This document shows positions 3,155 through 61,128 of a stretch of DNA of 64,000 nucleotides, piece after piece; position 1 is the first letter of the stretch; each line of letters opens with the position of its first letter. Location: positions 1 to 64,000 of the IMG/VR virus record IMGVR_UViG_3300034104_002622. The stretch is one strand, 5' to 3'. The notes under the pieces were generated by a model. The model did no database searches and was not told the DNA's origin. It worked only from the letters and a program-made list of their open reading frames with translations. The position numbers and the translations under genes are program-made. The DNA comes from a virus.

Positions 3155-4044
3155 TGTTATTCGGTAAAGGAATACTCAATCCTGCGCAACTCCGCGCTAA
3201 CTCCTTAGTTGGCACAGGGATTATTGGGGGGCTGCATCCCGGAAAGATTCCGGGTCTTTATCCTATTGAATCTGATCCCGATGCGAAGGCATACATCAAT
3301 GCAGTTGTCGCTGCTGGTGGGACGGTTAGCGAAGGGCAGAGGACAGCAATCAATACCTTCTACAAGACAGGGAAAGCCGATGGCTGGTATTCCTCGCTGA
3401 AACGTCTCTACCTTCCAATCTGGGGAGTCGCCGCGCCAAATGCTATCTGCATGACAAGCCTGACTAGCGGCACGTTTGTCGGCAGCGTGACGCACGGGGC
3501 GGGCTTTGTCCTGAGCGACATCACAACCGGCTACATGGACACCAATGTCGGGCTTACGACTTTGGGGCTATCTCTAAGCAGCTACCACTTCGCAGGGCTT
3601 TACAAGGCATCGTCGAGCAAAGCCAACTCCTATTTGTTTGGTGCTTCGTTAGGAAGCAACGTCAACCGGATATTCGTTAGTGGCACAACTGTGACCGCAG
3701 ATTTACATAGTGTGATAACTGGCAGGGCAAGTGGCACCGTGGCTAGTGGAGACAGACTTGGCATCTTTACTTTTAGCGGTGCGGCATCAGCGCGTTTTCT
3801 TAAAAGACGCAAAACCAGCGGAGTCACTACGCTCGGATCGACGACAACGACAATTACAGCGCAGCCAAACAACCTCAACGTCGCGTTCCTAGCCAACAAT
3901 AGTTCAGGAACTGTATCTAGCTTCTGCGGAGAAGAGATCGGCGCGTTCAGCGTCGGGCTTGAACTAACCAACGCGCAGGACACCGCATATTCCCTCGCCC
4001 TCAAAAACCTCTGGGAAGGAACCACTAACTTGGTTCTTCCTTAA
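3154..4044 (+). CDS. Virion/fibre-associated protein (lectin-like beta domain likely)
   Basis: ATG at 3154 overlaps the upstream TAA; DPDAKAYINAV motif, G/S/T-rich. Confidence 0.55.
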   Translation: MLFGKGILNPAQLRANSLVGTGIIGGLHPGKIPGLYPIESDPDAKAYINAVVAAGGTVSEGQRTAINTFYKTGKADGWYSSLKRLYLPIWGVAAPNAICMTSLTSGTFVGSVTHGAGFVLSDITTGYMDTNVGLTTLGLSLSSYHFAGLYKASSSKANSYLFGASLGSNVNRIFVSGTTVTADLHSVITGRASGTVASGDRLGIFTFSGAASARFLKRRKTSGVTTLGSTTTTITAQPNNLNVAFLANNSSGTVSSFCGEEIGAFSVGLELTNAQDTAYSLALKNLWEGTTNLVLP

Positions 4045-31800: not shown

Positions 31801-32904
31801 GCTTTATCTCGCTCTATTTTCATTACTGAATTGTTAGCTGAACTTCGATGGATGGAAAAGAACGGACAAATTGAAAAGGCTCCAAAGGACGAAATGGAAT
31901 TGATTGGCAGGAAGGATTTTAAAAACATTCCCATGGAAGCTGTTCAATACGCTGAGGCGAAAGTGAGCGATCACATGGGGGTTGCTGACCAAGCCAAGAA
32001 AGCAATGCCTTTCCAAAATCTCACTAGGTCTCCTTCGTGGAATGCCTTGATCCGCACCATATCTAGGTTCTCTAATCACCAAGCCTCCACTTCAAGCGGT
32101 ATGGCTGCTATGCTGCCGATGATCTGGAAGGCTGAGACAGGAGAGGATGGTAAGCTCACAATTGGTGGTCAGAGAGCGAGACAAGAAGCCATCGAGAACA
32201 TTACGGGAACGGTAATCCAAAACAGCTTGTTCCACATTATGAAGCTCAAGGTGCTTGTTCCAATTGTTTTGTCGGTGATTTACGGAATGGGTGACGACGA
32301 TGACGAGGAAGCTCAAGTTAGGGCTCAGGAGATGGCCGACAAATTAATGGCCCCGGACGAAGAGGGTAATCCAATAGTCAATGCGGCCAAAGCGGTGATT
32401 TTTGGAAAGCAGTCCCAATTTTTCAGGGACGAAAAAACACCCGAGGCTGCGGCGGCTTCGGCATATGCTTCGCTAGGATCGAGCATTGTGTCTGAAATAA
32501 TCCCTATGGCTCACCCGCTAACTGCGGCATTTGGGTTTTATCCTGCGCATTTTGCGTTTAAGGCAGCGATTACGAACCAGTTGATTCAAGATGCTACAGC
32601 AAAAATGACTGGATTAGATTCAGCACAAAGCAGATGGGAAGATGATGCGGTTTACATTTACGAGCGAGAAGAAGGTGGGGTGCAGACTGCTATGGGCATG
32701 ACTGCTCCTAGTTCTGTTGTTTACGACTTGGGTGCTGCGGCCGCATTATCAACAGAAGCTGCTTTCGCAGAAGAATCTAATGTCTTAGACATTATTGCTT
32801 ACATGATAAGCGAAGTCGTTCCGGTTACTCGTGAACTTCGCGGAAGGTTGAAGCAGAAGGTTGAAGAGTCTGTCTGGGAACAGCGTTCAGAAGATAATCG
32901 TTAG
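16843..32904 (+). CDS. Giant (5353 aa) internal virion / DNA-ejection polyvalent-type protein
   Basis: Uninterrupted 16-kb ORF; G/A-rich membrane-like N-terminal region; zincin HEMGH...E motif; last gene of the structural operon. Confidence 0.75.
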   Translation: MNFDNYDYGSNTDQLQEDQPIKAPVEFDFTDALGIVKADKWVGANQTRRIATVDKAFEKIVEQAESDKSRKIKWNRLGGNKELVEMPLFHSDGSWTSQGKEWLGQQRNYLEAAANDETGGMVVNPLSGEFEIASHLAPLLGRKQKQFDPFKDFDDIKQDVESEVVDGKPRDFTYEAFLERVNQGKDPDSPSAIDPDNKAMREQFESRKRLNDFDPSTMGNTPFLMKEGVPIFNPKMLNEPTKIESAIETSELSVADKKMALINFRDTYNKLGAGIVNEVSDADDMQMHKMPLNAIADIFGVDRNNISKRFRDHMAQEGGKGSLYTFIKENEAEFSGEQFGWADKLNNAFWNANRSTGGGALWLLTAGQNKGVNQFLSDSARSSDSAFEGMGGVENYRVLGMDFTNKGMYDMAGQVASMLATGGASLALKGGIKAAGTVAGATAGSLVPKAGVLGAAAKGVMASDEAILAATKALAPNTAKNLTIKALRDPSAYIGGLQASGMSFGSTFNQVMEETGDYDLATKKANIEGISSGLSAFIATSVFNRIAPGAEKMMTGVEGSLSGSIASRIAFAKASGSSATRKATIKAFEDLATDEVTRKLLSKGMAEAADKAAKQAGLKGFGPAAGVVSEFFEESTDTALNDVISAVLDDSKTWTDTVWDNIGEKFSEYMAAGVMGAFGGAMGESVGGLTSFSKASREQRAKAVKEHAFAKWETIKGNIDSFGESEIADKDGKFRPIAEFLAWDGATSEEKSKALVNAARERTGLQISLEGRAVAPVVAKPPEAVEKPKEGASIMDDLFESRPKDENGNDMEWQEAKITYGPEHKLVLGGKEVTMQQVDLPRDEGVGALITDADGKKTHISAAKAKKMLEESKPLKKGLRVGASPEMKQRAAMLERFSADSNPAQYAKKNETSKQSTTVDADNKQIAPPSETRSRDSAPPQDDGDSGIAGDGGAKQTRQSDIGAPTSTTLIPAAQKLLDEKVSEERLIELASWKKESGSLDPSNEQKTLNQIAAKAVLKSQGKWDDANNSPLAQTKSETPAPVSTEAAPEVKDTEEDPPFRPVNDPEEIAYRKNKTIAWAKNTESERGSNVGRKTIFEKIAALFDSSPKTGNKEEVLERLKKFGAMGHVSGWLNEDAIREDYRSGLKYIRGEVADSKGSEQKKLLFERMGITPDEFLSFINDHGGEEAYVEFIKAHEMGHIASGHRGQKTINQGDLLDDQHMGWETEANHWALETLGFYEWRKQQPNKPNEKQTENQGDEAKGPQVGKIHRPANSNGLTGDIVAKFAKDGNSIIVADNETAANNEIKRQGLEGRPVLVVNAATASNRAAVEDAIEDFQSGDKQLGSEVESNTPAMVDPLMEDPTAPKFFADISSLDTEDKFGGKWYKSGDTYTYTPTQGKVLPIGLNSVVAIDGEPDAVLLLVGEKDGVYEFRKVDYKVMAKTLGEDFKGYGKFSKDWNDNRLKEAGRHIEAHLDKLFSGKLSEKEFDSMLRKIMAVVAPGVRLESIAFEKLENGEFFVARRTTPKDGDGNATGLAQTKIVLDRQAFMANLAKVFRGYRTGQDAFYNKLVGNEVARQLAAHVDEELTHVVGMKEFKDIEVIGLFDELVALSRKGKQKFISSVFNQIAARRVKGKTLDSFTEDEKYMVGAETLRALNQILTTGSWTEEQTNDAKRLLFALNEDAAEAKGPLKTVIELLRRYMLKIRRMLHMRLLMGQLPPNLQAMLKRQETAYVRANLFGDVDMIKDKNAQEKMEMARESLLSSRKMIGKVAMKNTGALVELKRIVKTLNLNIEDIIEIDYRNGTIRLIDDSKKAFNGMSFQDLIKRYEPDVNLEDINKALSELEMEGSVFAIMQDLGLAYRALEAARNLTPDLLPILDDSYGLSVSEGDEEGATRSDKEDAAETEKYRVMQMLVAAAPAFDNGSAFIKRKMAEVDSLAKNDSLVLSQMNLDVIAVVAELDLGVANDAIKLSRIAEMVKYSPGQEVMDLNMAAPDFRKNLLKRLHERATINSTDSLNYDGESLIGVHRILFGKRPDYKPFVSTRMKRREMLEDLEAFRLAQMTEAQADRLQAEQLTPEQVKSLKLLRDAQVESAIAAGQYEQYGSSAFVERARLRARRMRSEAGVNMEVANRLYQDYLTYTKALDDYNKLATTAIREMIGEESLDTKGFGMSHQDYNYNMDELVSQKPENVIQVQKDMLARRRGKMFSEAEYETVTPVRAGLPKEQSHSIAHGYPYKDVAWNVANKDKSMTLITVTQSDPITPWFPKKEGDQPPSDSFKVTALPTSSNPLFKRGILSSAAFRGNINAMQFLQMLDRGITGDTAERYMATLGYVSEVVENEDFDDIQYESIDRILPRYAVSRLYAFQKEELYLGSSNGKNRALGIKDLNKTFGSNLDKNHPDYKNSIQSLIDSIRDYATKLSRSTNPDLTINDIDGLQTLAGRSAPVINDRASEVLKYLAEFEAEVNSISYAIRTAGEKATRNEMVGFSSRLFALFNTKTNSAFENLDVAIRLANVSSEIARQEANSFKRIIPNVIREKTRTARDAGYASSELFRETRDSMIDPVTLTNMKWWINRFGKDSLASVGGTWAIDLMERAGRIGFGTAGEMLVTDAAWVWTQAPVFEFDSNGDVVMEPLLDEDGKPVMEFYIEDGLQKIQPAMKFKAKLDEFGEPLTELRQVHIDMSDDDAIAYLISEKDNAGRAPISSNMNEIGSSVKDAKIGRSSSESKQSPYEKSLRQMDVERQLQKKFITEAGLLIGLRIGVDKSADDAQDFLNRLLALDSDSSSYNDVLRDGLSGLFGIDPSNVGELIGKFKDFQQGIFEIKSAPITSRTEEFVTQKKLDLFSPSGTIAENRIDPFSFLMEMIEFKSRFERDLIDAARVGSVDLETGELISGGRGDFRLTEALRTLSNHATAGGQNPQLRDDLAAMNESMIRKGRKTLFSEVGLAQTNQEEAAVIAKMLHDESLGKGEVYLYDANTFAKMGDQGIISTNETINLILQNIPDAILYKPTKQTKAKNEAYFGTRFFVPMDGSPPVIYVGDTSNQEDNRVLIEQALGYLTRQKTAEADLIAQRLIQTASSIRLALSPITHLEELIRGLGNKADSIDNFIRQYTDELALANPASMDGLDEAKKAELSGMIRAYFMKMQDIGLINTAQKAELNKITALLNETSPEDSRNSYSTERSLLSDSDQRAVERERDYIRLMAADPINDSISLIAEVWSNPEAKRLLDRVMIGDNIVNTLDSLSDQTLARGIQAVKQMGESNPEDQTIADHFDSVNSQEVAQDNLNEEGSEDIDNRDVDTWADEYDKALEQARKEAGEQSDLEKPQELSTEDKEKFLALVPSANNIRRFFRARLFDKAEFGPMDDKLAAIVEDYSQNGGLSPADALLFNTLMDVVSVQKTLQAPVIVDNNSDVTPGREILGDLGTRDGANPIVGNNEGSKWRGRRGERAPFVGAWHTLMTGRQNGRTAPTLVFERKRYQKFAGGFLDRVPFINEIIQTQAEKSINEAVDNYNEAKHKNLPNFISYPRAYVDIPLTQEVYEQIGSYLPTGKLAAAEAEVRENIQKMFKLRENAERQRDKAKAVIEEFENRALENPLFERIQQWQFQGNVRSMIEAQILDEAYNTALEVKSAAGGDTRLEKLLNTYATKSRFQSDRYKEVFNDIQQDAIRLRQLIANADALIEAEQEATGEIVKDRGVVYYADPKIFLQQKLLNSNIQKLNQIVNKDMESVWRLVIEDDNNAKSVFSENSKKFIKINEVEDLFKFRFGMLEDDLTRMFSRDGLRNVFLRPLVEQAVGGFGRETSSLASREMQMPTKTTAKKKSKEIEAVRLQAKRQRRKMISRLVNMIKQGSTRNEIKMYLTRQLEGRFNALESNANSPFNDSFRAMLDEISMPSDALVEILRYDEGVKSTEEAARLTKAENVLLKSERLLAQMNDPNVTVKSGGYFSRLAFNNTSDALAGIHTHIGSDQSLNPLGGRHKVPITMTFVPEDALSPMVTEMTRKDELAAYRSKWNKEFKDAANPYEFYIRQQAISRALSDYAEKADVLHRAIKQQETYINNYNPAAIIQQVTDTMAIQDRLSQERINRIKADSEGVSHHAVAPDVVALLAVPEEQSFYSVSNVKELNKLADKAKQKGLELSKAIDEVKGYETRIAQAKNKGQFMQADKLGVLLVKAKANRDGIADDLKTIGKRRVALRAARRVSRHTIPENMKERRELVAHLVNDGEWLLLGSITAAQDLKNRFVVQSGKAQSGESMMRDIVLSSVPEEDESEDGTVHLQNRMGFTSVYRNEAWTHTDFTSPAWSLAANSTRESASKQFAARYSSNVVERANRRLAERRNDPLARAGDEDRKIDTNNTFVKKQLEMFEFYVESIALAYDRNTLSGETRKRVFDFLKTLADGKIAQSNDAAESVDLIDLYASVVSEIEGPEAMKLLIAGIVPLSGPARFSMKALHHHESKLRMTFMKTHIAQMEARRLHGYLEHGFDLKSGRNTHTNEFNKAKAKLEEKAKLLGLDSLQQSIPYVIASLKGLTKTRSASLAGNLSMWASDFQTGSRDLKQLFDSQNELAAGQKFGKIRKYFTAEHVDVIRDYAMVKEVYETIRPILRDVGTSPSGTDKNAHALELINKAIAALEEKIPANLQQASKDYSDTLGTTFKGLSDASELTLIMMSHPDATPDEGQAYQKWLHGGLRGDATFVTTVPLRYGHAANPKSIGKSFEPRQYKEDPLEEVGMMSLSLLGGPGKQARTRKDNEDAQTYRPINLNGLSGTIALLDDTLYRLNVTPTYSILRKIVGKEEVNQRNQGEVVGSKVMAKLGDSPEGEIARKWRVALGAISEEMDIKVANDMKFGVANTAFSETLNYLSSLMMVRSLFSFQQFWNQSGPSVLGYIVKKSVTGNYKDAIQMVRLLSKIIASKAGGDSQFNDEAKQFVANVATWVNFRGADGIDKLDQLRRKQVRHGAGLGKKWSGYALNQITNLGEKSLDFSIAKVERALSRSIFITELLAELRWMEKNGQIEKAPKDEMELIGRKDFKNIPMEAVQYAEAKVSDHMGVADQAKKAMPFQNLTRSPSWNALIRTISRFSNHQASTSSGMAAMLPMIWKAETGEDGKLTIGGQRARQEAIENITGTVIQNSLFHIMKLKVLVPIVLSVIYGMGDDDDEEAQVRAQEMADKLMAPDEEGNPIVNAAKAVIFGKQSQFFRDEKTPEAAAASAYASLGSSIVSEIIPMAHPLTAAFGFYPAHFAFKAAITNQLIQDATAKMTGLDSAQSRWEDDAVYIYEREEGGVQTAMGMTAPSSVVYDLGAAAALSTEAAFAEESNVLDIIAYMISEVVPVTRELRGRLKQKVEESVWEQRSEDNR

Positions 32905-45776: not shown

Positions 45777-45855
45777 TTATTTATTTGTTTTGATTTAGTT
45801 AAGGCTAAAATATATTCGAACAGTTCGATACACTGAACGCTGCGCATCAGTGATC

Positions 45856-46059
45856 TTAGCTGTTATCCAAAGAAATCAGCAGTTTGGCGGCGCGTTCCAG
45901 TTCAGGATTGAGCCAGTCCCTCTTTTGCGGTAGATCCGTAAGGATGTTGCGAATCACATAGAGCGCATCCGCTAGGCGGTCAGCGGCTTCATTCGATGGG
46001 CGATAGACTCCCGAGCTATTGTCTCGGAGCCATTTGATTAGTTCAGCGTTTGATTTCAT
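45856..46059 (-). CDS. Cassette-borne hypothetical protein
   Basis: 67 aa; ends LDNS* inside an attC. Confidence 0.7.
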   Translation of the reverse strand: MKSNAELIKWLRDNSSGVYRPSNEAADRLADALYVIRNILTDLPQKRDWLNPELERAAKLLISLDNS

Positions 46060-46114
46060 AATTTCGGAAGATGGATAACAAGTTTGTAGAGGCGACGACG
46101 GGCAGCGTCCCCAT

Positions 46115-46354
46115 TCAGGTTGGTAGTCCTTTCCCGTCGTCGCGCCTCACATCGGCGTTAGCGGAAGATTTCAGAATGGCTTCCAGTTTCCATTTAACGT
46201 GATAGAACCAGTCCTGACTGATCCGCCCTGAGAAGGTTGCCATGTCTCCATCGTCCTCAACGTCCGAGTAGTCCAACTCGTCAAGAATCCCGAAGATCGC
46301 TAACAAGTCATGCGAGGCAACCTCTACAACGTCTTTTGGTGGATTCTGGCTCAT
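46115..46354 (-). CDS. Cassette-borne hypothetical protein
   Basis: 79 aa; starts in one attC and stops in the next. Confidence 0.65.
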   Translation of the reverse strand: MSQNPPKDVVEVASHDLLAIFGILDELDYSDVEDDGDMATFSGRISQDWFYHVKWKLEAILKSSANADVRRDDGKGLPT

Positions 46355-46641
46355 GCGTTCGGTGCCTCCATATTTGCGTTAGGCAGAATTAAATCTTCAC
46401 GTTCGCGCCAGAATGCCAGTTGTTCAGACCAATCGCCGGCAAACATCTCCAACGGATATATTTCGTCGTTTTTCCGGTGCAGTTCCCTCCATGAGGATTC
46501 AAAATCCTCAAGGGATTTGAGTTGCTCAAATATAAACTCGTCTAACGTCAAAGAATGCCGAACAAGACGTGAGACGCAATCCCCACTAGTCTCCTGTTGG
46601 GTTAGGGTTTTCTGCTTCGGTGGTGATTTATCGTTTGGCAT
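46351..46641 (-). CDS. Cassette-borne hypothetical protein
   Basis: 96 aa; starts and stops in attC loops; ATGA overlap at 46351-46354. Confidence 0.7.
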   Translation of the reverse strand: MPNDKSPPKQKTLTQQETSGDCVSRLVRHSLTLDEFIFEQLKSLEDFESSWRELHRKNDEIYPLEMFAGDWSEQLAFWREREDLILPNANMEAPNA

Positions 46642-46903
46642 GGTCTTGGGGTATAAGTGGTGGGGATGCGTCTACATTGACGTTCGTAGGTGAGAATTGC
46701 AGTTCATCCAGCATATCGCTTGGATTGTTATTTCCGTTTGCCATCGCTTCAATCCATCGCGCTGGGTCAATCGTTGCGGTGTGCTTCCATCCTTTATCTA
46801 AAAGTTTTGCTTCTACTTCTTGAAGCTCTTGGTCTGAGTAACATTTTATCATTCCATCAAGAGCGTAAATAAAAAGCATTCGATCTAATCTAATTGTTTT
46901 CAT
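46628..46903 (-). CDS. Hypothetical protein ending in attC of array 1
   Basis: Likely start MKTIRL; GWKHTATIDP motif. Confidence 0.65.
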   Translation of the reverse strand: MKTIRLDRMLFIYALDGMIKCYSDQELQEVEAKLLDKGWKHTATIDPARWIEAMANGNNNPSDMLDELQFSPTNVNVDASPPLIPQDHAKR

Positions 46904-50847: not shown

Positions 50848-51043
50848 TATTTAATTGTTTAGCTTTAATTTGTAGGTCTTTTGTTGTTTTTTCCATGTGC
50901 TCAAGAAGAATGTCTTGCATCCAATATGGAGGACAGCGTCTTCCTGACCTCCAATCGTAAGCTGTTGGCATAGAGCATCCAATTTTTTCAGCAATTTGCT
51001 TAGCTGTGTATTTTGATATTTTTTGTTTGAATGTTTTTTTCAT
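50759..51043 (-). CDS. HTH DNA-binding protein
   Basis: TAKQIAEKIGCSMPTAYDWRSGRRCP, Cro-like HTH. Confidence 0.75.
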   Translation of the reverse strand: MKKTFKQKISKYTAKQIAEKIGCSMPTAYDWRSGRRCPPYWMQDILLEHMEKTTKDLQIKAKQLNISKPTWSLRGFLMSLATSRPIARLWQPPS

Positions 51044-51051
51044 GTTTTTAA

Positions 51052-52221
51052 TTACAGGTCAATTTCCAAATGAATGCTCCATGCTTTAACAAGTTCGTTC
51101 ATTAGAAATTGCTCAAAACGTCTTGATTCGTCTGAATAGCCAATTGTATGACAATGCTCTTCTAGCAGCGTGGTAATCAAAAAAAACAATCCTTGGTCAA
51201 AAGAACGTTCTGTTAAGTGGATAATTTCTGAATGAACAAAAGCGATGTTTAAGTTATCTTCATTTGAGATATATTTGATTTTTGCTTTTACGTCGTATCC
51301 CATTTTTGCCAAAAACTCTTTAGCCTTGGCTAACATCCGTTCGTGGCGCTCAGGCATTTCAATTTGATTGAACTCAGCGTCAGGCAATTGGCTGCGTATT
51401 TGGTGTTGGAGATTACTGATTAGTTTGGTGGGGGATTCTTCCCAGATTTCAGCTACAACTTCTTTCATTGTTACTCCCCACGTGCCGTAATATCCACGGT
51501 CAGCTTCCCAATTAGGTTTTTTCGCTGTAAATAAGTGTTTTAAGATAGACTTATTCGTTAGTTTTTCGATGCCTCTTTCAATAGACCGATAGACATCGTA
51601 GATATTAAAGATAGTGCGATCTTCTGTAAGTTTTACTTCATCTAGCAATTCGTAAGAATACATCGCTTCTTCGATGAAGCCTACCTTAACTCCACGATAA
51701 AATATTTCGCCATCTCCTTTGTAAATGTTGATTTTGTCGGAAGAGGCAATAGGGACGCGAGCACCTACGAAAATGTTTTCGTGATTGTCATAGCACTCTG
51801 CAAATTTTTTGTGAGTGATATAGATAGTGCTGTCTTGTATTGAAACTGGGTGGCGACCCCATTCTCCTCCTTCGTCTATTGTATTCGAAACAAGCTCACG
51901 GTAGGCTCCTTCTAGCTCCCACTGCTTTCCAAGTTCTGTTGTAAATCCAAGCTCACGATCATTGCAAGTAATTACATCAAATGTTTTTCCACGGAATTCT
52001 TTAGTTTCTTTTCCAAATTCATATATCCCATTGGGAGTGATGATGCTGACTGTTGCGTTTTCACGAATGAGAACAGCTAAGGCTAATTTCATTCCGGTTC
52101 CAAAGAAGCCAATTGGAGAATTATTATCTGGTTTAGCATTAATTCCCATAATACTCCAGCTTTCAGGGTGAAGAATGCCAGGAGTGGTAAGCATTATTGT
52201 ATTTGAACAATCTGTATTCAT
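51052..52221 (-). CDS. GHKL-like ATPase domain protein with C-terminal zincin-like motif
   Basis: IGFFGTGMKLA, RELVSNTIDE, TLLEEHCH. Confidence 0.65.
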   Translation of the reverse strand: MNTDCSNTIMLTTPGILHPESWSIMGINAKPDNNSPIGFFGTGMKLALAVLIRENATVSIITPNGIYEFGKETKEFRGKTFDVITCNDRELGFTTELGKQWELEGAYRELVSNTIDEGGEWGRHPVSIQDSTIYITHKKFAECYDNHENIFVGARVPIASSDKINIYKGDGEIFYRGVKVGFIEEAMYSYELLDEVKLTEDRTIFNIYDVYRSIERGIEKLTNKSILKHLFTAKKPNWEADRGYYGTWGVTMKEVVAEIWEESPTKLISNLQHQIRSQLPDAEFNQIEMPERHERMLAKAKEFLAKMGYDVKAKIKYISNEDNLNIAFVHSEIIHLTERSFDQGLFFLITTLLEEHCHTIGYSDESRRFEQFLMNELVKAWSIHLEIDL

Positions 52222-52306
52222 TGTTTATTTGTTTATTTGTTGTTACAAATCAACCTCAAGCCCGAAGGGCTTTAAGTTTATTGATTTATGATTTATTTGT
52301 AATTGT

Positions 52307-52438
52307 TCAGTATCTCTTTGAGCAATTAGAGCAAACGCTCTGTCCGTGCTTTGTGAAGATCAAGGGTGTTTTGCAGTCGCGGCAAAAGCCGAAGAACTTG
52401 CAGGGTTTTCTGAGGTAGTAGCGTAGTTTGCATCTCAT
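52307..52438 (-). CDS. 43-aa Zn-ribbon peptide (founder cassette, copy 1)
   Basis: MRCKLRYYLRKPCKFFGFCRDCKTPLIFTKHGQSVCSNCSKRY; paralog at 56823-56954. Confidence 0.75.
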   Translation of the reverse strand: MRCKLRYYLRKPCKFFGFCRDCKTPLIFTKHGQSVCSNCSKRY

Positions 52439-52484
52439 GGTGTTTGTTGTTGTTCAAACAGGTTGATGCACTGAACGCTTTGCG

Positions 52485-52712
52485 TCACCGATCTTGGCTG
52501 TTCGGAATAAAAACTCGCATCCAGAATGCGACGGGCTGAGACGATGTTTGTCCGCGCCACCCGAATCTTTTGCTCCATGATCCTTTGTCCCACCAACCGT
52601 CAGCGCGGATGATGACTACTTGTTCACCGTCATTCGGCAATGTTGAATCGGCAGAAAAGATTTCCGAACAATTCGTGAGAGGCAACGCCTCGGAGTTTTC
52701 TTGTGTATTCAT
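52485..52712 (-). CDS. Cassette-borne hypothetical protein
   Basis: 75 aa; LPNDGEQV...VAFWM (DUF551-like); starts and stops in attC sites. Confidence 0.65.
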   Translation of the reverse strand: MNTQENSEALPLTNCSEIFSADSTLPNDGEQVVIIRADGWWDKGSWSKRFGWRGQTSSQPVAFWMRVFIPNSQDR

Positions 52713-52748
52713 AGTCGTTAAGGGCGTGCCTCCACAGAGGCGTTCGAC

Positions 52749-52907
52749 TTACTCATAGAAGGCCAGCTTGATCTTTTGTTGTGTCACATCCAGACTCAGC
52801 AATGACCAAGAGTGCCCGGTGTTGAAGTTTTGGACATCAATGACTGAGATTCTCCAGCCACCGTCAGGCCGGATGTAGAGTTTGAAGAGTTGTATTTCGA
52901 TTTCCAT
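52749..52907 (-). CDS. Cassette-borne hypothetical protein
   Basis: Likely start MEIEIQ; stop lies just before the core site. Confidence 0.55.
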   Translation of the reverse strand: MEIEIQLFKLYIRPDGGWRISVIDVQNFNTGHSWSLLSLDVTQQKIKLAFYE

Positions 52908-52927
52908 GTTAGTGTGGTGTGTTGTCG

Positions 52928-53203
52928 TTACAAAGTCGAACAAGGCGCGGCAGATAACCGCTCTGGGCTATCTGTCGTATTTGCCACGTCCTGGGTTCGC
53001 GGTATCTGCGCTTGGGCGTTAGCCTGAAGAATAAATTTTGCCTCACGCTCAAGCTGCGGGTCGAGCCAATCCCTTTTTTGCGGAAGGTCATTGATGATTC
53101 GCCGCAAGACCGATTCGACCGATCCAGCAAATGCAATCATGTCTTCGATGGCTCGCGGCTTAGGGATGCGGCTTCGTATTTCGTCTCGTATTGGTGTATT
53201 CAT
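52928..53203 (-). CDS. Cassette-borne hypothetical protein
   Basis: 91 aa; reads completely through attC 52935-53024. Confidence 0.65.
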   Translation of the reverse strand: MNTPIRDEIRSRIPKPRAIEDMIAFAGSVESVLRRIINDLPQKRDWLDPQLEREAKFILQANAQAQIPRTQDVANTTDSPERLSAAPCSTL

Positions 53204-53258
53204 AATTCAAAGAGGCTAACAAGTGGATGCTGGCAACGGCGGGAGTTGCCCTGTTGGT

Positions 53259-53534
53259 TTATTCGGAGTCCAGCGCCCGCCGCGCCAGATCCTTGTCGTT
53301 CGGCTTAGAAAGCATGAGTAGCGTCCATGAGATTGTAACCAGCACCAAGATACCCAACGGGAGTCCGATCTTAGCGGTATTGCCTGAGTCCAGACGGGTC
53401 AGCACCGATGAGAGAAGAAAGCCCATCTGGAAGGTTACAATCAGTGTCGTGATTAGCCACGCTTTGAAACGTGCCGAACAAAGCGTAGATGGCGATTCCG
53501 AGGAATCGCTCTGTTCAAGTTTTGGGGTAGTCAT
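53259..53534 (-). CDS. Cassette-borne membrane protein (2 TM)
   Basis: Two hydrophobic helices; starts and stops in attC loops. Confidence 0.7.
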   Translation of the reverse strand: MTTPKLEQSDSSESPSTLCSARFKAWLITTLIVTFQMGFLLSSVLTRLDSGNTAKIGLPLGILVLVTISWTLLMLSKPNDKDLARRALDSE

Positions 53535-53580
53535 AATGTTTGATTGATGTTGAGAGAGTCACTGAGCCTCGGAACCGCCA

Positions 53581-53835
53581 TTACTCGACGTTCTGGCCAT
53601 ACAATGCAGACAAGATGGCATCGACGCGCCCTTGCGCTGGATCGGTTCCTTTGCGCCGGTGTTCGTGCAGATCCTCGTCCTCCATGAATGGGACTTTCAC
53701 GATGACTATCAACTCGCCCGCTTCGTCTCGGAGCCATCCCCAATCAGCATGTTTGGATCGGTCATGGGAGAGACGCCCAACCCAGCCAGAACAAGTCGTG
53801 AGAGGCAACGCCTCGGAGTTTGTTGGTGTATTCAT
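53581..53835 (-). CDS. Cassette-borne hypothetical protein
   Basis: Start MNTPTN in attC loop; DWGWLRD...EHRRKGTDP. Confidence 0.7.
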   Translation of the reverse strand: MNTPTNSEALPLTTCSGWVGRLSHDRSKHADWGWLRDEAGELIVIVKVPFMEDEDLHEHRRKGTDPAQGRVDAILSALYGQNVE

Positions 53836-53881
53836 AGTCGTTATTGGCGTGCCTCCACAAAGGCGTTGTAGCAAAGAATGC

Positions 53882-54187
53882 TCATTTGCGGCGATCTCCG
53901 AGGATTCCAAGCATGGAGGTTGTGCCGCGTTGCCGTGGCATCAAGACCCGCTCTCCGGGTTCGCCGCGATCCCCTCCGCATTGGGCGTGTGTCCCATCCT
54001 CGAATCGGGCAAGGGTCATTACATCCGTTCCCACGTATCCCCAATTCGTGCCCTCTTTGACGACCTTCCTGACGATTGCGGGTTCGTCCACGTAGTAAGG
54101 CATTACAGACATTGCCTCCAGCCCGAATCCGAAGACTGCTATTGCGGATGCGCAGAGCGCGGCGATTCCAAGGTGTTCAAGTTTCAT
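53882..54187 (-). CDS. Cassette-borne protein with N-terminal TM/signal segment
   Basis: 101 aa. Confidence 0.65.
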   Translation of the reverse strand: MKLEHLGIAALCASAIAVFGFGLEAMSVMPYYVDEPAIVRKVVKEGTNWGYVGTDVMTLARFEDGTHAQCGGDRGEPGERVLMPRQRGTTSMLGILGDRRK

Positions 54188-54262
54188 ATTTTATCGGAGT
54201 TTGAGATTGGTTCGGAAGAGCTACAACAAGCGGATCGTGGCAACCCGCTCCCGCCCGCCATT

Positions 54263-54505
54263 TTAGATTTGATCGGGCTTCACTGGTGCGGGATCGGTTG
54301 CCACATCCTCGGCGTTCTCGGATAACTTGTTGAGGGCGCGGCGGTGGTGCTTGTAGCGGTTGTCGTGGTGGCATGATCCATCGGAGCAAGTGAAGGTCAC
54401 GGGGTCGCCTACTCTTTCGAGGTGGTAACACGCCCACACTGAATGCCAGCTTCCGAGAACAAGGCGTCGCACGCCGACGCCGCGAAGTTTTGTGATGATT
54501 TTCAT
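54263..54505 (-). CDS. Cassette-borne hypothetical protein
   Basis: 80 aa; ATGA overlap inside attC 54454-54541. Confidence 0.55.
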   Translation of the reverse strand: MKIITKLRGVGVRRLVLGSWHSVWACYHLERVGDPVTFTCSDGSCHHDNRYKHHRRALNKLSENAEDVATDPAPVKPDQI

Positions 54506-54825
54506 GGTTTATTTTCGGCGCGGGTGGACTCGACGTTCGCAGAAATAAGGCCCGCGACGAGTTCGGGGACTTTCAGAGCCAGAACGTCTTCCTGTATGCT
54601 CCCATCGTCCGATGTCTTTGCTGCCTCGCCGAACATCTCCCCTATCTGGGTGACGATTCCGTGATAGAACGCCTCGTTCCGTGAGAACTGAGCGGCAGAG
54701 TCCATCCATGCGGCAATCCGCTTTGCCACGGCTTCCGCAAGGACAACGTCCATTTCAATGTGCTTGGTTTCATCGTCGCACCAGCATTGGGCGGCGATCT
54801 GTCTTGCTTCTTCGATGTATGTCAT
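54502..54825 (-). CDS. Cassette-borne conserved phage protein
   Basis: AAQCWCD...MDVVLAEA...SDDGSIQEDVLALKVPELV. Confidence 0.75.
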   Translation of the reverse strand: MTYIEEARQIAAQCWCDDETKHIEMDVVLAEAVAKRIAAWMDSAAQFSRNEAFYHGIVTQIGEMFGEAAKTSDDGSIQEDVLALKVPELVAGLISANVESTRAENKP

Positions 54826-54863
54826 AAGATAAAATTCTGCGAACAAGGCGGTCCACGGAACGG

Positions 54864-55235
54864 CTACCCGTTGGACGCTTTGGGTGAAGGTTGAGTCTCA
54901 GCCACGGGTAGCCGCGCGTGGCCTTGTTCGTTCGGGGTTAGGGATTGGAGGGCATCACAAATCATGGATTGCAGTGCCTGACGTGCAAACAGAGCTTGAT
55001 CTTCGCCTCCGCATTCTCGGCAACTTGTCCCATCCGCTATTAGACGCAGTTTCTCCGCCAGCCTGTCGCGCTGCTCGGTGACTGTCTTATTTTCCATCAT
55101 CAGGGATAAAGCGGTTGTCTCTATATTTGCATATTTGTTTTTTAGAATATCCAGTTCTTCTGCAATCTGATACCAAGATTTACCGCTAAGGCATAGAGCC
55201 TTCCATCTTTCGTTTGTGGTTGGTGTATTGTTCAT
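54864..55235 (-). CDS. Modular coiled-coil family protein; ends in attC
   Basis: QRDRLAE and QSLTP blocks. Confidence 0.7.
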   Translation of the reverse strand: MNNTPTTNERWKALCLSGKSWYQIAEELDILKNKYANIETTALSLMMENKTVTEQRDRLAEKLRLIADGTSCRECGGEDQALFARQALQSMICDALQSLTPNEQGHARLPVAETQPSPKASNG

Positions 55236-55528
55236 GCTTCCTTCGGGGTTAGGGATTGGAGGGTTGTTTCGGCAAGGTCTTTTGCTGATTGTGGGTCTTC
55301 GTGAATCAAATTGAAAACACTACAAAGATTATCCGCCAGCCTGTCCCGCTGTGCGGTGACGGTGGCGAGTTCCTCCTGTGCCTTGGCGAATCCGTAGTCC
55401 ATAAACTCGCGGGTTCGGATTGTCTCCTCCCGTGCCTCGTCCCGCTCGCGTTCTAACCTTCTGGCGAAGTCTATGCTAACTCTACCTGTCCCAAACTGGG
55501 CTTCGTCGGTTTCTGGTGTGTCGCTCAT
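55232..55528 (-). CDS. Modular coiled-coil family protein
   Basis: TPETD, ERERDEARE, QRDRLA, QSLTP blocks. Confidence 0.75.
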   Translation of the reverse strand: MSDTPETDEAQFGTGRVSIDFARRLERERDEAREETIRTREFMDYGFAKAQEELATVTAQRDRLADNLCSVFNLIHEDPQSAKDLAETTLQSLTPKEA

Positions 55529-55884
55529 TTCGCGCCCTCCAATGCTTTTTCTGCTTTGATTTGTGATCTATCCCATCCAACTCCGTAAAGGTCGCCGTGA
55601 ACTTGCCTAATGTATCGCCAGCCAGATAGCATATCGCGCAAAGCCTCCCGCGCCTTGTCCCGCTCGCGTTGCAATGTCTTAGCATGATCCCAGATAGTTC
55701 CGTTGGGGTCGCGGAGTTCGCAACCAAGGTCTTTGTTTTGTTGGATGTATTTTGCCTTCCATTCGTCGCGTTCGCGTTTGAGTTCTGCGTTGGTTTCCTT
55801 TAGGAATTGCTTGTATGCTTTTATGTCCTCTATGTTGGTTGCTTTTAACGTAGATTCGTCCGTCTCAGGTGTGTCAGTTTTCAT
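55525..55884 (-). CDS. Modular coiled-coil family protein
   Basis: TPETD and two RERD blocks. Confidence 0.75.
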   Translation of the reverse strand: MKTDTPETDESTLKATNIEDIKAYKQFLKETNAELKRERDEWKAKYIQQNKDLGCELRDPNGTIWDHAKTLQRERDKAREALRDMLSGWRYIRQVHGDLYGVGWDRSQIKAEKALEGAK

Positions 55885-56132
55885 GGCTTCTGGGTTAGGG
55901 ATTGGAGGGCTTGCTGGGCTTTTTCAAATGCTTCTGGCATGGATACTGGCATAAAATCAACGCTGTCAATACAGTTGCAAGATTCTATCAAGTCTTGTAG
56001 TGCCTCCGCCAGCCTGTCCCGCTGTGCGGTGATGGTGGAGAGTTGGTGTTTGAGTCTTGTTATGATTTGACTAATGTAACATGCGACTGCAATGATTGTA
56101 ATGGCTGGGGCAATTATGTCTAAATAGTTCAT
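55881..56132 (-). CDS. Modular family protein with N-terminal TM
   Basis: QRDRLAEAL and QSLT blocks. Confidence 0.7.
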   Translation of the reverse strand: MNYLDIIAPAITIIAVACYISQIITRLKHQLSTITAQRDRLAEALQDLIESCNCIDSVDFMPVSMPEAFEKAQQALQSLTQKP

Positions 56133-56452
56133 GGCTTATGGGTTAGGGATTGGAGGGCTTCGGTTGCAACAAATCTAGCTCCGTGACCATTATCGCATTG
56201 GAGGTCTGAGTAATCGAATGTCGTAATCATTTGCAACGCTTCCACCAGCCTGTCGCGCTCGTCTAATGTCTGTGCCAGTTTCTTGCCCATGCGCTCGTTG
56301 GCATCGTTTAGTTCTCGGCAAACACTCGACATCCTCCATTGCTCCCGTGCCTCGTCCCGCTCGCGCCTTGCTTCTTTTAAGAGTTCCCATGCAGCCAGTT
56401 CACATTGAAGGTCGTTCTCAGCATCCGTCTTAGGTGTTGGTTGTGTATTCAT
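56129..56452 (-). CDS. Modular coiled-coil family protein
   Basis: Start MNTQPTPKTD; RERDEARE, ERDRL, QSLT blocks. Confidence 0.7.
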   Translation of the reverse strand: MNTQPTPKTDAENDLQCELAAWELLKEARRERDEAREQWRMSSVCRELNDANERMGKKLAQTLDERDRLVEALQMITTFDYSDLQCDNGHGARFVATEALQSLTHKP

Positions 56453-56811
56453 GGTTCTTTGTTCGGGTTGGTTGTCCACTTTCTAATCGTGCGAAAGAAA
56501 GCTTCTGCGCGTTGGGCGGCGGTTGCGGTAATGCACATATCAAAATCCATTTGTGCTTTTGTTACTCCAGCTTCTCGGCGGATCGCTTTTTTGATTTGTT
56601 GCGTGTATTTCTTTGGGAGATTCGGGTCGCCATAAAGCATTTTCTCGGCTTCGTGCATCGCGTTTAAGTCGTTGCAGTAGTCGGGAAGCTGGTGAACGTC
56701 ACGCGATAGACGCGCTTGTGGCGGTCGCCAGTATCGAATCTGTGAATTTCCCACGTGGGAAATCCATCCGCACGACTCAGCGATGGCGATTCTTTGCGCT
56801 TTTGGTTTCAT
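56449..56811 (-). CDS. Conserved phage protein, paralog of 58387-58842
   Basis: RIAIAESCGW...LPDYCNDLNAMHEAEK...ATAAQRAEAF. Confidence 0.75.
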   Translation of the reverse strand: MKPKAQRIAIAESCGWISHVGNSQIRYWRPPQARLSRDVHQLPDYCNDLNAMHEAEKMLYGDPNLPKKYTQQIKKAIRREAGVTKAQMDFDMCITATAAQRAEAFFRTIRKWTTNPNKEP

Positions 56812-56822
56812 ATTTTTGTAGT

Positions 56823-56954
56823 TCAATATCTCTTTGAGCATCTAGGGCAGATGCCCTGTCCGTGTTTTGTGAACATCAAGGTCGCCCTGCAATCGCGGCA
56901 GAAACCGAGAAACTTGCAGAGTTTTCCGAGGTAGTATCGTAGTTTGTATTTCAT
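56823..56954 (-). CDS. 43-aa Zn-ribbon peptide (founder cassette, copy 2)
   Basis: MKYKLRYYLGKLCKFLGFCRDCRATLMFTKHGQGICPRCSKRY. Confidence 0.75.
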   Translation of the reverse strand: MKYKLRYYLGKLCKFLGFCRDCRATLMFTKHGQGICPRCSKRY

Positions 56955-57002
56955 TGTGATAATTGAATTATAATCGAACAGGTTGATGCGGTGAACGAAG
57001 CG

Positions 57003-57308
57003 TCACCGATCTTGGCTGTTCTCGGAAGAAATTTCCGCAGCCATCTTGTCCATGACAGCTTCAGCCGCCACATGCCCGCGATGTTTCAGCAGTTGCCGGA
57101 TGCGGTGCTTTAGCTTGTTTTCGCTGCGTTCGAGCGCCTTGGCGTGTTCCTCCATCTTTTCGAGGTTGTGCCAGTCTTGCCAGTTGTTCCGCTTTATCTC
57201 TTCGGAGAGAGCGGCGGTCTTGGGAGTTTCGCGGAGTCGCTCGGACAAAGAAGACCGAGAACAAGTCGCCGCACGCAACGGGCTATCACTTTTCAATTTC
57301 TTTTTCAT
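57003..57308 (-). CDS. Cassette-borne hypothetical protein
   Basis: Start MKKKLK in attC loop; ends ENSQDR* in the next attC. Confidence 0.7.
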   Translation of the reverse strand: MKKKLKSDSPLRAATCSRSSLSERLRETPKTAALSEEIKRNNWQDWHNLEKMEEHAKALERSENKLKHRIRQLLKHRGHVAAEAVMDKMAAEISSENSQDR

Positions 57309-57336
57309 GGTCGTTTCAGGTTCGCCCGTGCGTGGG

Positions 57337-57612
57337 CTAGGCGTTAGCAAGATGAAGTTTCACGTAGTCCATCGCCGCCCGTTTCGCTTTGTCCTCGGAG
57401 AGAGGTTCGTCGTTGCAGGAATTGTAAAGCGGCACACTTTTGCCTCTTGCCACCCAATACCAACCTTGCTTCCCGCTGTGTCGGCGAGAATACTCGTAGG
57501 CGTTGGCGTATTCCTCCCCTCCCATGTTGAGCGAGTGTCCGGGATGACCGCTGCATACACCCGCAAGCCCTGTCGGACGCGGATTCTTTTTCCATCTCAA
57601 TGCCTGTTTCAT
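57337..57612 (-). CDS. Cassette-borne conserved phage protein
   Basis: LRWKK...TGLAGV...GWYWVA...AKRAAMDYVK; ends LANA* in attC. Confidence 0.75.
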   Translation of the reverse strand: MKQALRWKKNPRPTGLAGVCSGHPGHSLNMGGEEYANAYEYSRRHSGKQGWYWVARGKSVPLYNSCNDEPLSEDKAKRAAMDYVKLHLANA

Positions 57613-57645
57613 ATTTGTTTGGAGTTTTGGGGTTATTCGGTTTCG

Positions 57646-57882
57646 CTAACAAATCGCCGTATCCAACGGCGGCCAGATCTTTATTTTAGTCGGCGTCCTT
57701 TCCGCCGTGGATAGGTTCGGCGTACACTTTTGGACTTCGATGCAAAGCTGTTCGTAAATCATGGTCGCTTTATAAGGGTGTAGTGTGACCCCTCGGGCTT
57801 TGAAATTCGCCACGATTCGGTGGCGTTCTTCCGAGAGAAAACGAATGAGGCTGTCCGGCTACGGGGGCGGTACTGTATTCAT
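57646..57882 (-). pseudogene. Small ORF with in-frame TAG at codon 8
   Basis: MNTVPPP*PDSLIRFLSEERHRIVANFKARG...; TAG at 57861-57859. Confidence 0.45.
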
Positions 57883-57904
57883 TTGCTGAATTTTTTTATT
57901 GAAA

Positions 57905-58363
57905 TTATACTTTGATAACTAAATGTTCTTTTGAATTGAAAATAGACTCTAATAAATTTTCTAAAGCAATTGAAAGATCTGGGTTATCAAGCAATGGGTT
58001 AGGGCTTTTTAATGATTCTTTAATTTTATTTTTGGTTTCATTTTTATCGAAATATCCAATTGAATCAGCTTTTTGGTATTTTTCTCCAAGTTTATTGAAC
58101 AACGAGTCATTCATAACAAATCTGATGCTTACATCTCCCCGGTAATTTACTTCTACTTCAAGTTCGTTTAGTCGCTTTGGGATAGCGATTATTGCCTTTT
58201 CTTTGATTTCTTCTATGATTTTTTCTTGTTTGATGTTGGCTTCTTCTTTTTGCTTATTGAACTTTTCTTTAGCTTTTACAACTAAAGCTTCGATAAGTTG
58301 AGATTTAGTGGGTTTAGGTTGTGTTTTTTTGATTTTGTTTGGCAGTATTAGTGTTGTATTCAT
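57905..58363 (-). CDS. Hypothetical protein
   Basis: 152 aa, AT-rich. Confidence 0.7.
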   Translation of the reverse strand: MNTTLILPNKIKKTQPKPTKSQLIEALVVKAKEKFNKQKEEANIKQEKIIEEIKEKAIIAIPKRLNELEVEVNYRGDVSIRFVMNDSLFNKLGEKYQKADSIGYFDKNETKNKIKESLKSPNPLLDNPDLSIALENLLESIFNSKEHLVIKV

Positions 58364-60688: not shown

Positions 60689-60736
60689 GTTCAAACTTAC
60701 TTGATTAAGGGTTTGATGCAAGTCTTAATTTGGAAC

Positions 60737-61128
60737 TGGAGCTGGCGGGAGTCGAACCCGCGTCCACAACACTGTTAAATACATTTTCTACAAGCTTAGT
60801 CCTTTCGGACATTGGGGACGCTGGTTAGGCGACCTTCCACCACTCAGTTTTTACGCCGCTGAGTTGCGTTGTTTGCCTTACTGTTTCAGGTCATCCGCCC
60901 GAAGGCACGGCGTAGGATGATCTTACCCGGTTTGTTTCCCTTCGTAGAGCGAGCGTTTCGGAGGGCGTGTTTTGCTTAGGCTACGAGAGCAACTGTGTTG
61001 CTTCCGAAGTTTCCGCGAATGACGTTGTTGCCATTTGTTTGTTTTGAGCGGCTTATTAAAGAGGCCAGCCGATCAACCTCTACTTGCTTATGTATCCTAT
61101 CGCGTTGTGTCGAAACCATTACAGCCCC
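60737..61128 (-). ncRNA. ssrA: tmRNA (392 nt), tag (A)GNNVIRGNFGSNTVALVA
   Basis: 5' GGGGCTGTAATGGTTTCGAC; 3' GGACGCGGGTTCGACTCCCGCCAGCTCCA with G3-U70 acceptor pair; tag ORF 61032-60976; CCA not encoded. Confidence 0.95.

Follow-up and report, generated by a model that had tools for sequence, protein, structure and literature searches.

Three arrays of attC-like recombination sites were identified in a 64,000-nucleotide (nt) stretch of viral DNA (the window), which corresponds to bases 1-64000 of the IMG/VR virus record IMGVR_UViG_3300034104_002622 (G000; 73,283 bases, rated 100% complete). The arrays appear to be phage-borne clusters of attC sites lacking an integron integrase (CALINs), and each opens on its left with the same short attC, here called the head, which probably serves as an attI-like anchor. 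The conserved array start is this short attC and not the small zinc-ribbon (Zn) gene that adjoins it in arrays 2 and 3, which an earlier note on this DNA had taken for the cargo of a founder cassette. In the preferred reading, which is given a probability of roughly 0.6, an integron integrase (IntI) supplied by the host set down the short head at the ends of phage genes, where it acts as a fixed attI-like anchor, and the Zn gene is resident phage DNA.

The attC sites were called with a scanner that accepted a site only if it ran AAC...GTT, had spacers of 4-6 and 5-7 nt and formed a stem whose AAC arm was longer by two bases. When it was applied at a threshold of 14 to both strands of the 73-kb genome and to three shuffles of it, 14 sites were found on the plus strand, 13 of them within the three arrays, and none on the minus strand or in any of the shuffles. 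Three sites, starting at 52457, 54458 and 54842, were added by eye or at a lower threshold. The arrays thus contain 16 attCs, namely four (45819-46684), nine (52457-54932) and three (56977-57724), respectively. AAC...GTT is present in 15 of the 16, and the remaining site ends in GTA; examples of the R''/R' 7-mers are TCCGAAC/GTTCGAC and GGCTAAC/GTTCGGC. Site lengths range from 44 to 124 nt, and the loops are mutually unrelated and vary from 2-3 nt in the heads to more than 60 nt.

Array 1 (45798-46684, plus strand) contains a candidate left junction at G45798/TT (a slash marks the point of exchange), a 19-nt leader, the head (45819-45864) and three cassettes with attCs at 46077-46159, 46302-46380 and 46561-46684; on the right, the junction G46682/TTCGTAGG is situated within a phage gene, at its 3' end. 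Array 2, also on the plus strand, begins with a 46-nt AAC...GTT head (52457-52502) followed by eight cassettes (52503-54932), each with one minus-strand open reading frame (ORF). The cargo attCs of this array are located at 52667-52744, 52939-53020, 53218-53300, 53477-53592, 53790-53867, 54225-54316, 54458-54537 and 54842-54932, and its right junction, G54930/TTCGGGG, falls within the end of a gene of the QSLT family. Array 3 has a 44-nt plus-strand head (56977-57020) and two plus-strand cassettes (57021-57724) with attCs at 57260-57345 and 57648-57724; its right junction is G57722/TACAC, the last attC ending in GTA and not GTT.

In all 16 sites the plus strand is the attC top strand and the minus strand is the recombining bottom strand. 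In its 44-46 nt the head has an R box, a spacer of 4-5 nt and a 12-bp stem that bulges out two bases and closes in a loop of 2-3 nt. The heads of arrays 2 and 3 (52453-52506 and 56973-57024) were folded as DNA on the minus strand, which put AAC in the 5' arm and two bulges, C and T, in the 3' arm; the usual extrahelical bases of attC sites are G and T. Spacers of 5 nt and 5-6 nt and bulges at stem positions 4 and 11 match the attC-aadA7 sequence. In the bottom-strand layout described for attC sites, the extrahelical bases lie near L'', on the arm opposite AAC (Nivina 2016, PMC5027507). The fold of the head agrees with this wild-type arrangement, since AAC occupies the 5' arm and the bulges the opposite one. 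Stem pairing was found in 96% of the cells in 21 distinct heads as against at most 44% when the partner was slid, and two adjacent pairs are compensatory (A-U/C-G in 12 of the 21 heads, G-C/G-C in 7). The array 2 heads of G000 and of the sister phage G001 are reciprocal hybrids of these two covarying stem variants; the stem of the head at 52457-52502 has two mismatches because it combines both variants.

All 13 cargo ORFs are encoded on the minus strand, so that the coding strand is the recombining bottom strand. Each ORF starts beside its own attC or inside the loop of that site (start codons at 46354, 52712, 53534, 53835, 54505 and 57308 lie within loops) and reads out across the G/TT boundary. 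This layout is the mirror image of the canonical cassette, which is a promoterless top-strand coding sequence ended by an attC (Loot 2023, 10.1101/2022.09.11.507474). The G+C content of arrays 2 and 3 is 0.50-0.56, whereas the phage DNA that flanks array 2 on the left has approximately 0.39. No T-run follows the hairpins. None of nine cargo ORFs matched Pfam at the curated cut-offs, and four other cargo ORFs matched no PHROGs family. The attC type at 52667-52744 and 53790-53867 carries an ATG in its loop, and its bottom strand encodes the first ~17 residues, MNT(Q/P)(E/T)NSEALPLT(N/T)CS, of differing cassette proteins. At positions 3708-3758 of the reverse complement of metagenome locus L185, only the 5' half of this attC type is present, without the L'/R' arm, as the N-terminus of a 130-amino-acid (aa) ORF. 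Paralogous cassette proteins encoded in array 1 (45856-46059, minus strand) and array 2 (52928-53203, minus strand) share ...DLPQKRDWL(N/D)P(E/Q)LER(A/E)AK.... The MNT start (ATGAATAC) is common among cargo ORFs and resident phage genes, which hints at a phage-adapted cassette pool.

With four, nine and three sites and no integron integrase nearby, each array falls within the definition of a CALIN (at least two attCs and no such integrase nearby). The intI gene, attI site and Pc promoter of a complete integron are missing, and the left flanks consist of a phage gene start, the Zn gene or a terminator. A search for tyrosine recombinases (PF00589) gave no match in the whole 73,283-base G000 record, in line with the view of the earlier note that the arrays nucleate without attI; the same search was positive in 14 of 14 control genomes. 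It also gave no match in any of five further array-bearing phage records, two of which are rated 100% complete. The stretch is present in 24 lake or freshwater metagenome runs. In Logan contigs of run X13, positions 51900-52693, 53791-55082 and 56401-58300 were recovered with 0-1 differences (none in the last interval). The ends of array 2 and the whole of array 3 are thereby present in independent contigs, so that a fault of a single assembly cannot account for the junctions. Among 50,697 GenBank phage records, no close relative of G000 was found; the array flanks gave only distant matches (4% cover) to Erf genes, and array 2 gave none.

Conservation of the head was assessed in IMG/VR with a 21-letter pattern taken from its 5' half. 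Twenty-two copies were found in 21 stretches, all with the full hairpin. No other attC-like site occurs within 1.5 kb to the left of any of the 22 copies, and further attCs lie to the right of 13 of them; several of the others are less than 300 nt from a contig end. The copies form 21 distinct combinations of flank, head and first cassette, with eight left-flank classes (two being variants of one locus) and 19 first-cassette classes. According to tblastn, the Zn gene adjoins the head in only one of the 21 stretches, which comes from G001. The earlier note had proposed to test whether the peptide and its attC type lead arrays in other phages; among these stretches the attC does so, and the peptide does so only in G001. 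The same pattern gave 22 matches in 185,579 prokaryote species genomes (one genome each), which were rejected as chance matches, all of them lying in ordinary genes without the 3' half of the head; the head is present in phage contigs only.

The commonest head locus lies just past a 70-aa gene and its terminator. Among 80 such loci, the head is present in 17 and a hairpin-deletion scar (AACAGGGCTGTT) in two. Twenty-nine loci with the terminator motif and at least 400 nt to its right were retained. In the 14 that carry the head, it is the first attC in every case and is followed by further attCs in 10; of the 15 head-less loci, 10 contain no attC-like site and two carry the AACAGGGCTGTT scar. 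In L117 and L119, a scar (GAACAGGGCTGTT) stands to the right of the terminator in place of the 46-nt head, with attCs further right, an arrangement consistent with slippage that removed the hairpin.

Shared blocks of G000 and its sister phage G001 (70,641 bases, rated 100% complete) are 91-99% identical. The two genomes agree in the left and right flanks of arrays 1 and 2 and in having the Zn gene with the head at array 2, but carry different cassettes, so the arrays turn over on a short timescale while flanks and head stay. G001 lacks the gene for the 130-aa protein beside array 3, copy B of the Zn gene, array 3 and gene X, which flanks array 3 on the right. A cassette beginning TTAGCGGAAGATTTCAG / TTAGCGGAAG stands after the attC at 46077-46159 in the window and after the head in G001, L025, L034 and L036. 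Its likeness among these five genomes and contigs starts at the GTT, and the units therefore run TT...attC...G on the plus strand. Such modular exchange at G/TT between genomes is indirect support for recombination by IntI. At positions 7676-7660 of G001, the head of array 1 is cut right after the AAC of R'' (...AAAATATAATCGAAC/ACTAGATATGG...), which suggests an event at the R'' box and not at R'. A candidate crossover mark, GTTCGTTCG, common to L018 and the right end of array 2, was dropped; the G001 junction places the crossover at the second GTT.

Two copies of the Zn gene are present in the window, both on the minus strand and both encoding a 43-aa peptide. Copy A (52307-52438; CRDC...CSNC) is located upstream of a gene for a 389-aa protein, and copy B (56823-56954) lies just to the left of the head of array 3. 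The surrounding repeats, 52305-52449 and 56821-56965, are 145 nt long and 81% identical without gaps, and the peptides are 70% identical (E 5e-19). In a MAFFT alignment, the likeness runs on through the short attC to ...GGCTGTT, so that 52305-52502 and 56821-57020 are homologous. The earlier description of two homologous CxxC...CxxC units heading arrays 2 and 3, with no attC to their left and with array 1 opening on the same short attC but without the ORF, was therefore accurate. Cysteines C19, C22, C36 and C39 are invariant in 21 homologues of the peptide. Its two CxxC knuckles, 13 residues apart, resemble those of zinc-ribbon domains (A2L_zn_ribbon, PF08792; Zn_Ribbon_TF, PF08271). All Pfam matches are below the curated cut-offs (best 17.7 bits against 24.1), and an AlphaFold2 model (pLDDT, the model's confidence score, 70) predicts a helix followed by short strands for which Foldseek returned generic zinc-ribbon modules only (E at least 0.08); no function can therefore be read from the peptide.

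Further Zn loci were collected by tblastn (G000 and G001) and by an alignment-based scan (three other IMG/VR contigs and 21 metagenome loci). No head adjoins the gene in 23 of the 25 further loci (4 from IMG/VR, 21 from metagenomes); the two exceptions are G001 itself and L179, a G001-like contig. Synteny of the Zn gene without any attC was found in L019, L181/183, L182/184 and L185-189, and the gene overlaps its upstream neighbour by the 4 nt ATGA in L019, L184 and L185, and in L182 by sequence. The L019 contig contains an 83-aa ORF that overlaps the Zn start codon by 4 nt and, downstream, a 398-aa homologue of the 389-aa protein of the window; L185-189 contain a 284-aa ORF coupled to the Zn gene in the same manner as in L019. 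In L182/L184, a 118-aa gene of the QSLT family ends ...ALQSLTPNAEL with a TGA that overlaps the ATG of the Zn gene, and the preceding 24 nt (GTTCGGGGTTAGGGATTGGAGGGC) are identical to the right flank of array 2. This arrangement looks like an empty site that retains the Zn gene. The coupling and the shared 24 nt indicate that the ancestral order was QSLT gene then Zn gene, and not the predicted gene end QSLTPNNYK. Empty sites lacking the Zn gene had been foreseen in the earlier note, which had also set down a different junction in relatives as telling against it; for array 2 it is a different junction that was found.

Two head-less loci cross the proposed left boundaries of the unit. L181 is 87% identical to window positions 50903-52444 over an unbroken 1552 nt, with the 389-aa gene, spacer and Zn gene contiguous, and reads ATT at the proposed GTT (A for G). 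An attC of the 52667/53790 type, reduced to its 3' half, follows on the right of the Zn ATG in L181, so this lineage once carried an array there and has since lost most of it. The head-less L017 is 94% identical to copy B at the DNA level from position 56807, 14 nt to the left of the proposed junction and beyond the stop codon. The left edge of the homology between copies A and B is 2 nt from the Zn stop codon, so likeness that "starts at a GTT" would also be expected of two paralogous genes in different contexts. These comparisons show the Zn gene to be resident phage DNA with the arrays situated upstream; its position as the nearest gene to the head in G000 and G001 is incidental, and copies A and B are paralogues. 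They do not support the claim that the Zn ORF is the cargo of a founder cassette, and with the peptide outside the mobile element nothing suggests that it would act on IntI. Were the Zn ORF plus head a gene cassette, it would be expected in unrelated contexts between recombination junctions, with empty sites that lack it; neither was found. Most probably, the head-plus-gene haplotype passed from one locus to the other through homologous recombination or a segmental duplication and not as a cassette.

The junctions give a mixed picture. Of the three right junctions, G/TTCGGGG and G/TTCGTAGG fit the 5'-GWT-3' consensus of attG targets and G/TACAC does not; the right junctions of arrays 1 and 2 are common to G000 and G001 despite different last attCs, and the left junctions could not be fixed. 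The arrays do sit near gene ends, and their junctions resemble those that insertion at secondary sites like G/TT would be expected to leave. For array 1, joining G45798 to T46683 yields an end ...LQFSPTN followed by a stop, and homologues of this flanking gene end ...LQFTR (L126), ...LQFLPTC (L148) and ...IQFTPAN (L024), the first two translated by eye; array 1 fits an insertion at the last codons of its flanking gene. As had been reported, joining G52305 to T54931 across array 2 gives ...QSLTPNNYK and a stop, and joining G56821 to T57723 across array 3 gives ...EVQKCTTKI with a TGA (56808-56810) that overlaps the ATG at 56811. Four GTTs located between the head and the Zn ATG could serve as junctions that retain the Zn gene; joining at them yields a 146-aa fusion or run-ons of 141-143 aa.

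No exact same-strain empty site was found. In Logan contigs of four runs, no joint was found at the predicted empty sites, and these contigs are broken at repeats and cannot show absence. A search for close relatives through the 389-aa flank protein, which belongs to phrog_8203 (of unknown function in PHROGs), returned G001 only. The 36 loci of relatives of the 130-aa protein (31-70% identity) contain no Zn gene and no head, with scattered single attC-like sites, and therefore offer no empty site for array 3. None of 80 loci of Erf relatives (up to 69% identity) has the 104-aa neighbour, so no same-context empty site for array 1 was obtained.

A mechanism consistent with these observations would begin with a host integron integrase inserting the head, bare or with cargo, at a secondary site of the G/TT type in the 3' end of a phage gene. 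Since nothing could enter to the left of the first attC, the head would persist as an anchor. Cassettes would then be gained, lost and exchanged at the GTT of the head and at the other attCs, so that the head would do the work of attI as a preferred landing pad.

Several points weigh against this reading. Neither an integrase, nor a host, nor a recombination event was observed, and we infer the enzyme. All sequences used are metagenomic, and the attC calls come from an ad hoc arm-alignment scanner and inspection, not from IntegronFinder or HattCI. The covariation involves two adjacent pairs only and may represent a single event, and the predicted stability of the head hairpin is modest (z -0.9 to -2.6). 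At array 2, the QSLT gene acquires no short end in any join that retains the Zn gene, and the join of the earlier note gives the neat ...PNNYK. The interval from the ATG of copy B to the head of array 3 contains no GTT, which places a canonical left junction of array 3 at or to the left of 56821. Finally, the B-type leader-plus-head haplotype occurs in array 3 of G000 and also in array 2 of G001, and thus at two loci.

A wider form of the proposal, which is put forward tentatively and with the odds somewhat against it, holds that a portable, phage-specific minimal attC replaces attI, so that phages without an integrase build and exchange arrays with the integrase of the host, drawing on a phage-adapted pool coded on the bottom strand. 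In a bolder sub-case, the unit of Zn gene plus head would be a cassette in the course of being made from a resident gene.

The founder proposal can be kept in a narrow form, in which TT-Zn gene-leader-head-G is a composite cassette moved by IntI within the G000/G001 lineage, copy B having been re-inserted at a G/TA site upstream of the 130-aa gene. Such a unit may have been newly minted if an attC was excised by way of a secondary GTT and took the resident gene beside it along; excision is reported to extend past the point of insertion (Loot 2023, 10.1101/2022.09.11.507474). The last three points of the paragraph on difficulties speak for it, as do the extent of the A/B likeness from a GTT to the G of the head's GTT, the short gene ends produced by both joins, one with an ATGA overlap, and the pairing of a left G/TT with a right G/TA, which is expected if the TT arrived with the insert. 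It is nevertheless unlikely. The edge of the likeness 2 nt from a stop codon is what paralogues would give, L017 matches copy B for 14 nt past the junction without a head, and L181 passes unbroken, with A for G, across the copy A junction. The head is missing beside 23 of 25 other Zn genes and the Zn gene from 20 of 21 head stretches, and no empty site for array 3 was found. By our own reading, a stop occurs within seven codons in two of three frames of the A+T-rich spacer, and clean gene ends are weak evidence.

Import of ready-made heads and arrays by homologous or illegitimate recombination, with the head as the last survivor of an old array and not a preferred landing pad, is considered quite improbable. 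Mosaic haplotypes point towards it: the Zn-plus-head segment of G001 is B-like in its 5' half and A-like in its 3' half, and the array 2 heads are the reciprocal stem hybrids described above. Cassette pairs also occur in the same order in array 1 of G000 and in L034/L036, and an Erf-type annealing protein is encoded beside array 1. On the other side, the same head is followed directly by 19 different first cassettes, of which more than 10 occur at a single locus that is conserved in other respects, and the likeness breaks exactly at the GTT, a precision expected of site-specific exchange and not of homologous recombination. That the hairpins are unrelated to integrons, being regulatory hairpins, terminators or the sites of another recombinase, is very improbable: no integrase was found in the six records searched, the head occurs in phage contigs only and the folding energies are unremarkable, but the full attC geometry recurs across 16 sites of 44-124 nt with unrelated loops, the units swap exactly at G/TT, the inserts differ from their flank in G+C content and no T-run follows the hairpins.

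The genes around the arrays show further variation. Genes at 33-64 kb are mostly encoded on the minus strand. The QSLT family comprises five tandem paralogues (54864-56479, minus strand), all resident in the phage. The middle one ends ...ALEGAK; the other four share a ...ALQSLT C-terminus followed by P, Q or H and a few further residues, and the leftmost now reads into the last attC of array 2. Four of the paralogues share the DNA repeat TCCGCCAGCCTGTC(C/G)CGCT. G001 and run X20, whose contigs join 55360 to 57895, differ from the window in the copy number and order of the family. The main strain of one run has a G001-like layout with the joint 55360 to 57895. Gene X (57722-57882, minus strand), at the right flank of array 3, contains an in-frame TAG after codon 7 (MNTVPPP-stop-PDSLIRFLSEERH...), its 3' end is replaced by attC sequence and its G+C content is ~0.5 by eye; it may be a pseudogene or a cassette remnant. 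Genome-wide recoding of TAG is unlikely because a single 5353-aa ORF at 16843-32904 (plus strand) is open in the standard code. A phage transfer-messenger RNA was identified at 60734-61128 (minus strand), with the tag peptide GNNVIRGNFGSNTVALVA followed by a stop in ARAGORN and a score of 137 bits against a gathering score of 47 for Rfam RF00023.

CALINs of virulent phages have been published, and five of six phage attCs tested, which are of the same general kind as those described here, recombine with IntI1 in vitro (Qi 2023, PMC9892861). Those CALINs resemble the present arrays in having attC arrays and small ORFs in phage genomes without intI. They differ in that here three arrays occur in one genome, each headed by a conserved, cargo-less minimal attC that also heads arrays in ~20 other phage contigs, and in that all cargo ORFs here lie on the bottom strand, whereas TJE1 and PH101 show the typical co-oriented layout; no conserved head is described in section 3.4 of that paper. 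None of the titles and abstracts retrieved describes a conserved anchoring attC, several arrays in one phage or an all-inverted cargo; supplements may list more phage CALINs. IntI also inserts cassettes at 5'-GWT-3' attG sites of bacterial genomes, where excision can take neighbouring DNA. Insertion at attG leaves flank-G/TT-cassette-attC-G/TT-flank, and small CALINs have been proposed to arise in this way; CALINs outnumber complete integrons, and most are not near intI remnants (Loot 2023, 10.1101/2022.09.11.507474). Entry outside attI at 5'-GWT-3', as in attG insertion and in single attC sites lacking an integron integrase (SALINs), would be the common feature. That work, in the parts that bear on attG, concerns bacterial genomes and single cassettes, whereas here one founder attC is reused in phages, with up to nine sites per array and one G/TA junction outside the GWT consensus. 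Like the attI of a complete integron, the head is a fixed site at the top-strand-upstream end of the array with variable cassettes beside it. Unlike attI, it is a folded attC-type hairpin and not a double-stranded site with direct repeats, it has no adjacent intI or Pc, and it lies at the transcription-distal end of the cargo genes.

The arrays bear on how attC arrays originate away from an integron platform and on how genes become paired with attCs in cassettes. With regard to the founder proposal, the useful result is a negative one, namely that the zinc-ribbon peptide lies outside the mobile element. The head provides a natural series: at one and the same locus, dozens of related contigs have either the anchor attC, its scar or neither, and the cassettes beside it differ among near-identical genomes of the same lakes. 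If the head is a landing pad, lytic phages would go beyond carrying cassettes and would actively use the integron machinery of their hosts for accessory genes of their own, and phages would have a cassette pool apart, defined by its mirror-image cargo layout.

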